Shown in pieces: positions 1 through 827 of a stretch of DNA of 64,000 bases (its first letter is position 1; each line of letters starts with the position of its first letter). Location: the sequence record MZ726792.1; one strand, given 5' to 3'. The translations under genes were made by a program, and so were the position numbers. The stretch is from Escherichia phage vB_EcoM_ASO1B. The notes under the pieces are model-generated. The model did not search any database. It was not told the DNA's origin and saw nothing but the letters and a program-made list of their open reading frames with translations.

Positions 1-827
1 ACTACAGTAAGATTCCTTCACTTGCTGCTGCACGTTACCAAAAACTGTTTAACCGTAAAGATGGAGAACGCTACAAAGCTTACATCGAGTCATTATCAAA
101 GGGTGAGACTAAGATTAATGCTGGTGCTGTTTACCCATACGATGTGATTAAATCTGTTAAGTATGGTAATGCAGATGTTGCTAATGAGCAGTGGAAAGCA
201 CTACCAAACTGGATGGCAGAAGGTGAAAACATCTTGTGTATGACTGATGTTTCAAGCTCAATGTCTTGGGTGAATTTTGGTTCAATCACTGCACTTGATA
301 TTGGTGTATCACTTGCCTTGTATGTAGCAGAACGCAATACAGGTTGCTTTAAGAACGAGTTAATGGTTTATTCAACAAACCCTCATTTCATCGAACTGAG
401 TGGTGATTTACGAAACCGTCATCGTCAGGTGATGCGACACGTTGAATATGGCTCAACTAACTTACAAGCAGCCTTTGACCGCATTCTTGAGACAGGTAAA
501 AGAAATAACTTGACTCAGAAAGATATGCCAAGTAAGCTTATCATCTTCTCCGATATGGAGTTCAATCAGGTTGATGGAGCTAACGGTCGTACAAACTTTG
601 AAGCAATTCAGAGTAAGTACAAAAAAGCTGGATATGAGATGCCACAACTGGTATTCTGGTACTTAGCAAACCGTAATGGCACTTGCGAAGTGTCTGTTAA
701 GGATAACGGTGTAGCAATGGTATCTGGTTTTTCTCCAGCTACTTTAAAAGCTCTGCTTGGTGGTGAGAAGTTTGACCCAATCAGCGTAATGCTCAAAGCA
801 GTAATGATTGACCGTTATATCTGGTAA
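1..827 (+). CDS. vWA-domain protein, 5'-truncated at window edge (possibly the C-terminus of a Ro60/Rsr-like TROVE protein)
   Basis: Open frame (codons from position 3) continues off the window start, stop TAA 825-827; MIDAS-like DVSSSMS motif followed by GSTN, FSDME and VSGFS motifs in vWA-like spacing. Confidence 0.6.
   Translation, partial: YSKIPSLAAARYQKLFNRKDGERYKAYIESLSKGETKINAGAVYPYDVIKSVKYGNADVANEQWKALPNWMAEGENILCMTDVSSSMSWVNFGSITALDIGVSLALYVAERNTGCFKNELMVYSTNPHFIELSGDLRNRHRQVMRHVEYGSTNLQAAFDRILETGKRNNLTQKDMPSKLIIFSDMEFNQVDGANGRTNFEAIQSKYKKAGYEMPQLVFWYLANRNGTCEVSVKDNGVAMVSGFSPATLKALLGGEKFDPISVMLKAVMIDRYIW

Follow-up and report, generated by a model that had tools for sequence, protein, structure and literature searches.

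A 64,000-nt stretch of the genome of Escherichia phage vB_EcoM_ASO1B (MZ726792.1; the whole stretch is referred to as the window) opens with the 3′ part of a gene for a DUF2828/DUF7788 protein, which is followed by a cluster of transfer RNA (tRNA) genes with four interspersed small RNA units. The protein has the predicted architecture of Ro60, and genes of its family are associated, in forward and in reverse searches, with RNAs that carry a common structural handle. We propose that protein and RNAs form a second ribonucleoprotein (RNP) of the Ro60/Y-RNA type, built from a different protein family and with a different RNA handle, and give this reading a probability of about three in four. Ro60/Y-RNA particles are a classic RNA-surveillance system of sparse distribution, found in about 5% of bacteria.

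The gene fragment contains all motifs that an initial annotation of the window had quoted from it, in the spacing given there. In window coordinates, these are:

1–827, plus strand: 3′ part of the Ro60-like protein gene (DUF2828 + DUF7788), 274 codons plus stop, frame from base 3
246–266, plus strand: DVSSSMS
450–461, plus strand: GSTN
546–560, plus strand: FSDME
645–680, plus strand: QLVFWYLANRNG
720–734, plus strand: VSGFS
246–560, plus strand: MIDAS motif (for metal ion-dependent adhesion site), consisting of DxSxS (DVSSS, 246–260), the T of GSTN and the D of FSDME; invariant in the family

The open reading frame (ORF; frame 3, plus strand) is open from base 3 and ends with a stop codon at 825–827. 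The view that it is truncated at its 5′ end was borne out: the full gene has 471 codons in complete genomes (ASO1A_045; wV8 gp47; Felix O1 NP_944857 homologue), and the window holds the C-terminal 274 of the 471 residues, i.e., the last helices of a helical ring domain and an entire von Willebrand factor A (vWA) domain. Bases 1–8200 of the window are 99.7% identical to Escherichia phage vB_EcoM_ASO1A, whose protein differs from the window copy in 4 of 274 residues; for about 200 further Felix O1-like phages (genus Felixounavirus), the identity is 95–98%. Existing labels of the 471-codon gene are “hypothetical protein”, “vWFA protein”, “DUF2828 family protein” and, in RefSeq, “RNA-binding protein”.

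The vWA match of the ORF is far beyond chance: the fragment matches the vWA-type Pfam domain DUF7788 (E 7e-44, 150 bits) as well as the end of DUF2828 (E 4e-12, 46 bits), and PHROG 850, “RNA-binding protein” (E 2e-116). The MIDAS residues D279, S281, S283, T349 and D381 (full-length numbering) are invariant among 46 homologues down to 41% identity, and the MIDAS segments align with DVSASM, GGTDC and FTDNET of Ro60. When the full 471-residue protein is searched with hmmscan, PF11443 (DUF2828, to residue ~264; 103.5 bits, gathering cut-off 29) precedes PF25043 (DUF7788, residues 274–455; 148 bits, cut-off 27.1), which places the protein in the DUF2828/DUF7788 family (PHROG 850). The extension upstream thus bears out the vWA domain that the initial annotation had expected, but not the TROVE domain (PF05731), which is absent even at E 10; genuine Ro60/Rsr homologues carry PF05731 and PF25045, in place of PF11443 and PF25043. 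Pairwise BLASTP against D. radiodurans Rsr is not significant, and sequence searches of the PDB with the full protein and with the family profile returned nothing relevant.

The likeness to Ro60 emerges at the level of structure. An AlphaFold2 model of a 98%-identical full-length homologue, computed with a 46-sequence alignment, is confident (mean predicted local distance difference test score 89.3, predicted template modelling score 0.88) and shows a stack of helices, about 265 residues in all, that leads into an alpha/beta vWA domain. In a Foldseek search against the PDB, the top twelve matches are all full-length Ro60-type structures (E 5e-8 to 4e-6), among them Xenopus and human Ro60, D. 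radiodurans Rsr and the Ro60 of Thermus phage phiLo, with query TM-scores of at most 0.65; isolated vWA domains rank below these, with E values no better than 4e-3. Profile comparison with hhalign against a 21-sequence Ro60/Rsr alignment gives a probability of 91% (E 1e-6) for residues 235–450 only, i.e., the last ring helix (AGAVYPYDV vs. RIHPxxxL) and the whole vWA domain with the MIDAS in register; against a 3-sequence Ro60/Rsr profile, the probability is 80%. The ORF would accordingly encode, as judged from the model, the C-terminal part of a divergent Ro60-type protein with an N-terminal helical-repeat ring and a MIDAS-containing vWA domain. The initial annotation, which had seen a Ro60/Rsr-like C-terminus here, is supported overall: predicted fold, vWA profile, MIDAS and the structural comparison with Ro60 speak for it, while the TROVE profile does not. 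We read the DUF2828/DUF7788 protein as a separate, divergent branch with Ro60 architecture and not as an orthologue; its family is large and mostly phage-borne. Its Ro-like character as such is already known from database annotation: the label “Ro-like RNA binding protein” is attached to homologues in cluster L mycobacteriophages, such as LeBron gp53 (31% identity across 98% of the length). Overexpression of LeBron gp53 is cytotoxic (PMC13148394).

The RNA side of the proposed particle lies directly 3′ of the gene. Two promoter-like sites sit between the stop codon of the gene and the first tRNA, where promoters are annotated in MZ726791, and a phage cluster of 25 tRNA genes follows 3′ of them. 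Four units that are not tRNAs are interspersed among the first tRNAs of this cluster (1159–1937):

846–874, plus strand: sigma-70-like promoter, TTGACA-17-TAATAT (consensus match only)
937–966, plus strand: sigma-70-like promoter, TTGACA-18-TAAAGT (consensus match only)
1159–1235, plus strand: unit 1 (core 1167–1232), between tRNA-Glu and tRNA-Met; outer stem UGAC/GUCA; GACCAA-UU-ACAGCAA ... UUGGUC-UG
1325–1390, plus strand: unit 2 (core 1333–1386), between tRNA-Met and tRNA-Asn; outer stem UUGC/GCAA; GACCGU-AU-UCAGCAA ... ACGGUC-UG
1714–1792, plus strand: unit 3 (core 1722–1788); outer stem GAGC/GCUC; GACCAA-AU-ACAGCAA ... UUGGUC-UG
1800–1937, plus strand: unit 4 (core 1808–1933); outer stem UUAC/GUAA; the same handle around a permuted tRNA-like module
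1838–1854, plus strand: V-like hairpin of unit 4 (fold)
1859–1875, plus strand: T arm of unit 4, GAAGGUUCGAUUCCUUC (fold; canonical)
1876–1893, plus strand: closed 7-bp acceptor-like hairpin of unit 4 (fold)
1895–1911, plus strand: D arm of unit 4 (fold)

The promoters at 846–966, as read from their sequence, probably drive the cluster of tRNAs and small RNAs. CAGAAGACC on the 5′ side and GGTCTGG (RNA: GGUCUGG) on the 3′ side occur in four copies each, in register, between 1162 and 1934. All four units fold alike, with an outer stem of 4 bp that differs from unit to unit, an AGA/G internal loop, an inner helix, a 2-nt linker, a single-stranded (A/U)CAGCAA and a variable interior. The handle common to them comprises a 5′ G, a 6-bp stem, the 2-nt linker, (A/U)CAGCAA, the variable insert and a 3′ strand that ends in C-(U/A)-G. 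The neighbouring repeat units and the permuted tRNA-like module, to which the initial annotation had drawn attention, are hence both real: the former as four in-register repeats, the latter in the fold of unit 4. Rfam scans found no Y_RNA or YrlA in the window, and YrlA gave no match at E up to 10 in 1140–2090; no Rfam family attains its gathering score on units 1–4, and a weak Rfam tRNA match lies inside unit 4 (1826–1876). A covariance model of the units (R1) matches units 1–4 only in the 64-kb window, with unit 2 as its top match (27.4 bits) and E < 0.1 for units 2 and 3 only. Since R1 performs poorly with long inserts, an explicit descriptor with strand and distance controls was preferred for searches in other phages.

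The association between handle and DUF2828 gene was examined in other phages. In IMG/VR loci, the heptamer ACAGCAA, often in tandem, occurs immediately up- or downstream of DUF2828 genes and on the strand of the gene. The test set consisted of 75 such loci, with DUF2828 proteins 38–47% identical to the phage protein, and the descriptor was fixed as G-N5, a 2-nt linker, [AU]CAGCAA, 8–220 nt, a perfectly complementary N5 plus C, and [UA]G. Within 1 kb of the gene and on its strand, 65 sites were found (0.446 per kb), compared to 0.024 per kb farther from the gene and 0.0035 per kb on the opposite strand. At least one site lies within 1 kb in 45 of the 75 distant loci, a lower bound, because the strict descriptor misses a variant handle of Firmicutes phages. 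The linker measures 2 nt in 75 of 76 units, which have more than 40 distinct stem sequences, and among 67 non-redundant units, the G, CAGCAA, the C and the final G are invariant, with a U before the motif in 63. The base before the G and the base after the C, which the descriptor leaves unconstrained, form a seventh pair: A-U in 55, U-A in 9 and no pair in 3 units (n = 67; Fisher p = 1.2e-8). The reverse search scanned IMG/VR for TACAGCAA followed by a T-loop consensus within 15–45 nt, without any protein information. It retrieved 80 loci, of which 32 include a DUF2828 homologue in the piece of sequence retrieved, which was often short, and in 32/32 of these the gene is on the strand of the RNA; the base rate of DUF2828 genes is 709 in 50,697 deposited phage genomes. 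The linkage between gene and RNA is two-way and strand-specific, and holds across phages of Proteobacteria, Firmicutes, Actinobacteria and Campylobacterota.

Named phages illustrate this breadth. Mycobacteriophage LeBron has three unannotated units directly downstream of gp53 (locus L083, 4429–4676), the middle one with a permuted tRNA-like module that scores 39.8 bits with Rfam YrlA (gathering 69) over the tRNA-like part only, with mismatches within the handle stem. In Listeria phage LMTA-34, three units directly precede the gene and an RtcB-type ligase follows 1.3 kb downstream, and in Campylobacter phage CP30A, a single 79-nt unit (L084, 2938–3016) lies 21 nt before the gene. Enterococcus and Staphylococcus phages carry variant units with a spacing 1 nt shorter and a C-UU-G end, and two Enterococcus units contain tRNA-like modules. 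The variant handle of Firmicutes phages reads AAAG-N4-5 ... ACAGCAA with the 3′ end C-UU-G (L086, 4480–4700; L087, 2400–2900; L088, 1560–2870). Upstream of the gene in a Bacillus phage, 1.6 kb are free of genes and contain several CAGCAA motifs. The control was phage Alice, which encodes a true TROVE Ro60: its locus matches YrlA and contains no ACAGCAA-handle units.

The interior of the units varies in size and content. Small units (50–67 nt) have unstructured, A/U-rich interiors, and a perfect T arm is present in 83 of 159 distinct long units. In 47/159 long units, the T arm is combined with an adjacent closed hairpin (≥6 bp) and a D-like hairpin with GG in the loop, compared to 1.1% of tail-shuffled controls; the T-loop belonged to one of the patterns by which long units were fetched, the acceptor and D parts did not. 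Other kinds of cargo were also observed, among them recurrent inserts. A recurring element of about 40 nt, GAACCUUUCUGGAGGGGAAAGCAAAAACUCGCCAAAAC, is the cargo of one unit in several T4-like loci (L009, 5277–5371; L010, 3134–3233; L015, 150–281; L017, 1266–1374; L027, 5735–5829) and may form a hairpin or a pseudoknot. In L039 (5735–5834), a unit surrounds a non-permuted D arm, an anticodon arm (UGU) and a T arm, where ARAGORN predicts tRNA-Thr (5753–5824); here, the handle replaces or extends the acceptor stem, a topology unlike that of unit 4.

Minimal copies of the handle (32–41 nt) are found in about 10 loci at 11–60 nt before the DUF2828 start codon, ending 3–10 nt before the Shine-Dalgarno sequence (L009, 5955–5987; L015, 1765–1796; L017, 2860–2891; L014, 5947–5987; L058, L059, L065 and L070; also L084, where the copy measures 79 nt). 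This is the classic layout of autorepression. The copies suggest translational autoregulation and provide an independent hint that the DUF2828 protein recognizes the handle. The gene neighbourhood also speaks to RNA. Same-strand genes for tRNA or transfer-messenger RNA (tmRNA) are present in about 33 of 60 loci, and in L090 the DUF2828 gene is flanked by genes for an RNA ligase of the T4 Rnl1 type, for a metallophosphoesterase and for a Band_7 protein. LeBron possesses an RNA ligase and a polynucleotide kinase (PMC13148394). With its tRNA and tmRNA genes, RNA ligase, RtcB and phosphoesterase, this context suggests a role in the repair and quality control of tRNA or RNA. Phage tmRNA genes were seen within a few kb of the DUF2828 gene and on its strand in L023, L028, L033, L035, L040 and L055, and RNA-repair neighbours in unrelated phages at L090 (5279–6391 and 8842–9555) and L085 (5808–7019), with RtcB annotated as “tRNA splicing ligase”.

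Compared to the known systems, the parallels concern both partners. Like Ro60/Rsr, the phage protein is predicted to be a ring of HEAT-type helical repeats followed by a MIDAS vWA domain, and, as in Ro60/Rsr loci, its gene stands beside several small RNA genes on the same strand. Like Y RNA and YrlA, the phage RNAs are modular, with a handle in the terminal helix and variable modules. Often one of the RNAs at a locus contains a permuted tRNA-like domain whose elements run V, T arm, closed acceptor stem, D arm, the arrangement known from YrlA (PMC4201824), and unit 4 has the architecture of YrlA (RF02553), with a terminal stem around a T arm, a closed acceptor-like stem and a D arm. RNA-repair genes (RtcB, RNA ligase) in the neighbourhood are a further common trait. 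The differences are equally clear: the phage family is DUF2828 + DUF7788 instead of TROVE + PF25045, its ring domain is about 90 residues shorter than that of Ro60 and lacks similarity to the TROVE profile, and the handle consists of a G-stem, single-stranded ACAGCAA and C-U-G rather than the bulged helix of Y RNA or the stem of YrlA. Phage Ro60 proteins with Y-like RNAs are known for true TROVE proteins (PMC4201824, PMC12135203), namely in cluster C mycobacteriophages and Thermus phage phiLo. LeBron gp53 and PHROG 850 belong to the same protein family as the window protein, and their annotations and papers mention no partner RNA.

Several observations weigh against a second RNP of the Ro60/Y-RNA type. 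In 30 of the 75 distant loci, the strict descriptor has no match within 1 kb; some of these have variant spacing, while others may truly lack the RNA. As the descriptor demands the six core stem pairs, covariation counts at these pairs are circular and were not counted, so that independent evidence comes only from the controls for strand and distance, from the seventh pair and from the reverse search. In the profile comparisons with hmmscan and hhalign, the N-terminal domain (234 residues) does not align with TROVE, so that the case for common descent of the ring domain depends on the predicted fold. Upstream of the Felix-type gene, a search for a leader copy of the handle found none, only an inverted repeat that spans the promoter. 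Lastly, the function proposed below is drawn entirely from analogy.

The alternative that survives best keeps the Ro60-like protein, but takes the ACAGCAA stem-loops as cis-acting signals, i.e., processing sites or insulators of tRNA operons, or translational operators, and not as stable partner RNAs. The position of the units between tRNAs in the window phage would suit such signals, as would the operator-like copies right before the ribosome-binding site of the gene in about 10 loci. However, a cleavage signal has no need for the elaborate, conserved cargo (47/159 vs. 1.1% in controls), units also occur in loci without any tRNA gene (e.g., L011–L013 and L018–L025), and the near-identical Class I RNAs of Dictyostelium are abundant and stable (PMC7919456); we consider this explanation improbable. 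Much less credible is a canonical Ro60/Rsr orthologue (TROVE + vWA) with ordinary Y RNAs of the YrlA type, a system that has already been described. Overall fold and domain order are indeed alike, the tRNA-like unit of LeBron has its sub-threshold YrlA score, and actinophage relatives bear the Ro-like label. Yet profiles, BLASTP, Rfam and the Alice control all contradict orthology: PF05731 is missing at E 10 and the domain pair is a different one, Rsr is not matched significantly, the window contains no YrlA or Y_RNA match, the YrlA consensus stem lacks the G...ACAGCAA...CUG handle, and the true TROVE phage locus lacks the units. Finally, that the gene encodes an unrelated phage vWA protein (an assembly co-chaperone or structural protein) that adjoins the RNA cluster by coincidence is hardly tenable: vWA domains are common in phage assembly systems (PMC7824862) and some records say only “vWFA protein”, but full-length Ro60 ranks far above isolated vWA domains in Foldseek, and the forward and reverse tests show the RNA motif to be associated with the gene in both directions and strand-specifically across unrelated phage groups.

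If protein and RNAs do form a particle of the Ro60/Y-RNA type, it may work as follows. We infer that the DUF2828 protein binds a dedicated class of small RNAs through the conserved handle, which consists of a terminal helix with the invariant G paired to C, flanked 5′ by the 2-nt linker with single-stranded (A/U)CAGCAA and 3′ by (U/A)G. The remainder of each RNA would be variable cargo, in many cases a permuted tRNA-like domain. In the window phage, the four RNAs would be part of the tRNA-cluster transcript, which would begin a short way downstream of the gene, and the nucleases that mature the flanking tRNAs would presumably cut them out; such a release is plausible because Felix-type units have an extra outer stem and lie between tRNAs. 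Ro60 binds Y RNA on the outside of its ring and the ends of single-stranded RNAs in the central hole, and Y-RNA modules tether it to polynucleotide phosphorylase (PNPase). By analogy with Ro60 and Y RNA, the RNA could act as a tether or a gate of the ring and so let the particle work on structured RNAs, with the variable part serving as an adaptor like the modules that connect Ro60 to PNPase. A tRNA-like cargo might recruit enzymes that recognize tRNAs, or mimic a tRNA. On the same analogy, the particle might survey, repair or protect tRNAs in the course of infection, or recruit a host exonuclease.

The handle has a counterpart in eukaryotes. RF01414, the Class I RNA of Dictyostelium, is the only Rfam family apart from tRNA to match the units, and the best such match for units 1 and 2 and for a unit in L023. 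Each match spans all 56 positions of the model and begins and ends where the unit does; all scores (unit 2, 24.0 bits; unit 1, 17.5 bits; the unit in L023, 27.9 bits) are below the gathering score of 41.5. The Rfam consensus reads GaUcuC-CUU-ACAGCAA ... GagAuC-UG. According to Kjellin et al. (2021), Class I RNAs have an invariant 5′ G, a variable 6-bp stem with compensatory changes, an 11-nt motif (xxUxxCxxCAA) in which U3, C6, C9, A10 and A11 are nearly invariant, and a 3′ CUGU, the C of which pairs with the 5′ G; the class was concluded to be unique to Dictyostelia (PMC7919456). The phage handle likewise begins with an invariant 5′ G and a variable 6-bp stem, next to which stands the single-stranded ...UUACAGCAA; the interior varies, and in the 3′ C-U-G the C pairs with the G. 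Both kinds of RNA share a length of about 55–65 nt and clustered genes. They differ in that the phage linker has 2 nt instead of 3 and that phage units can hold large inserts. The DUSE promoter element upstream of Class I RNA genes is a trait that does not apply to phage genes. The only protein shown to bind a Class I RNA directly is Rnp1A, a protein with an RNA recognition motif. DUF2828 proteins exist in eukaryotes as well; the papers that mention the family concern plants and, in one case, a tardigrade. It is conceivable, though we regard it as doubtful, that RNAs with an ACAGCAA handle and a DUF2828 protein constitute an ancient RNP that also exists in eukaryotes, with Class I RNAs as its eukaryotic members, bound by a Ro-like protein of the DUF2828 type. 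If so, the DUF2828 proteins of plants and other eukaryotes would have similar RNA partners.

The window contains further features in the vicinity of the units. Directly 3′ of unit 4, at 1936–2080, lies a long, nearly perfect inverted repeat, AATTATCTTTGTAGATAAG ... CTTATCTACAAAGATAATT, with about 105 nt between its arms. No Rfam family matches this element, which is not a tRNA and may be a further structured RNA of the cluster. A strong promoter-like site (11/12 matches) at 2334–2362 is followed by about 500 nt without ARAGORN tRNAs (region to 2880). Rfam gives weak matches to tmRNA and permuted tmRNA at 2260–2565, and tRNA-like elements that are found by Rfam only at 2567–2645 (31.7 bits) and 2794–2868. 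Two ORFs inside the tRNA cluster, 4226–4783 (185 aa) and 5172–5969 (265 aa), are hypothetical in all annotated relatives.

In the searched literature, neither a partner RNA for the DUF2828 family nor the units in tRNA clusters of the Felix O1 type nor the ACAGCAA handle outside Dictyostelium is described; a search for the literal ACAGCAA returned primer sequences only. The findings indicate a second and much larger branch of the Ro60/Y-RNA design: the DUF2828 family comprises 8,856 clusters at 50% identity and occurs, among others, in such well-studied groups as Felix O1-like phages, Herelleviridae of Listeria and Staphylococcus, Campylobacter phages, T4-like vibriophages and cluster L mycobacteriophages. 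A large family defined by a domain of unknown function thereby gains a concrete candidate ligand, and unannotated gaps in phage tRNA clusters find an explanation. The handle held in common with Class I RNAs is the first outside lead on a biochemical partner of that RNA class. For the phages themselves, the observations suggest RNPs of their own that mimic tRNAs, perhaps to repair tRNAs or to evade defence.

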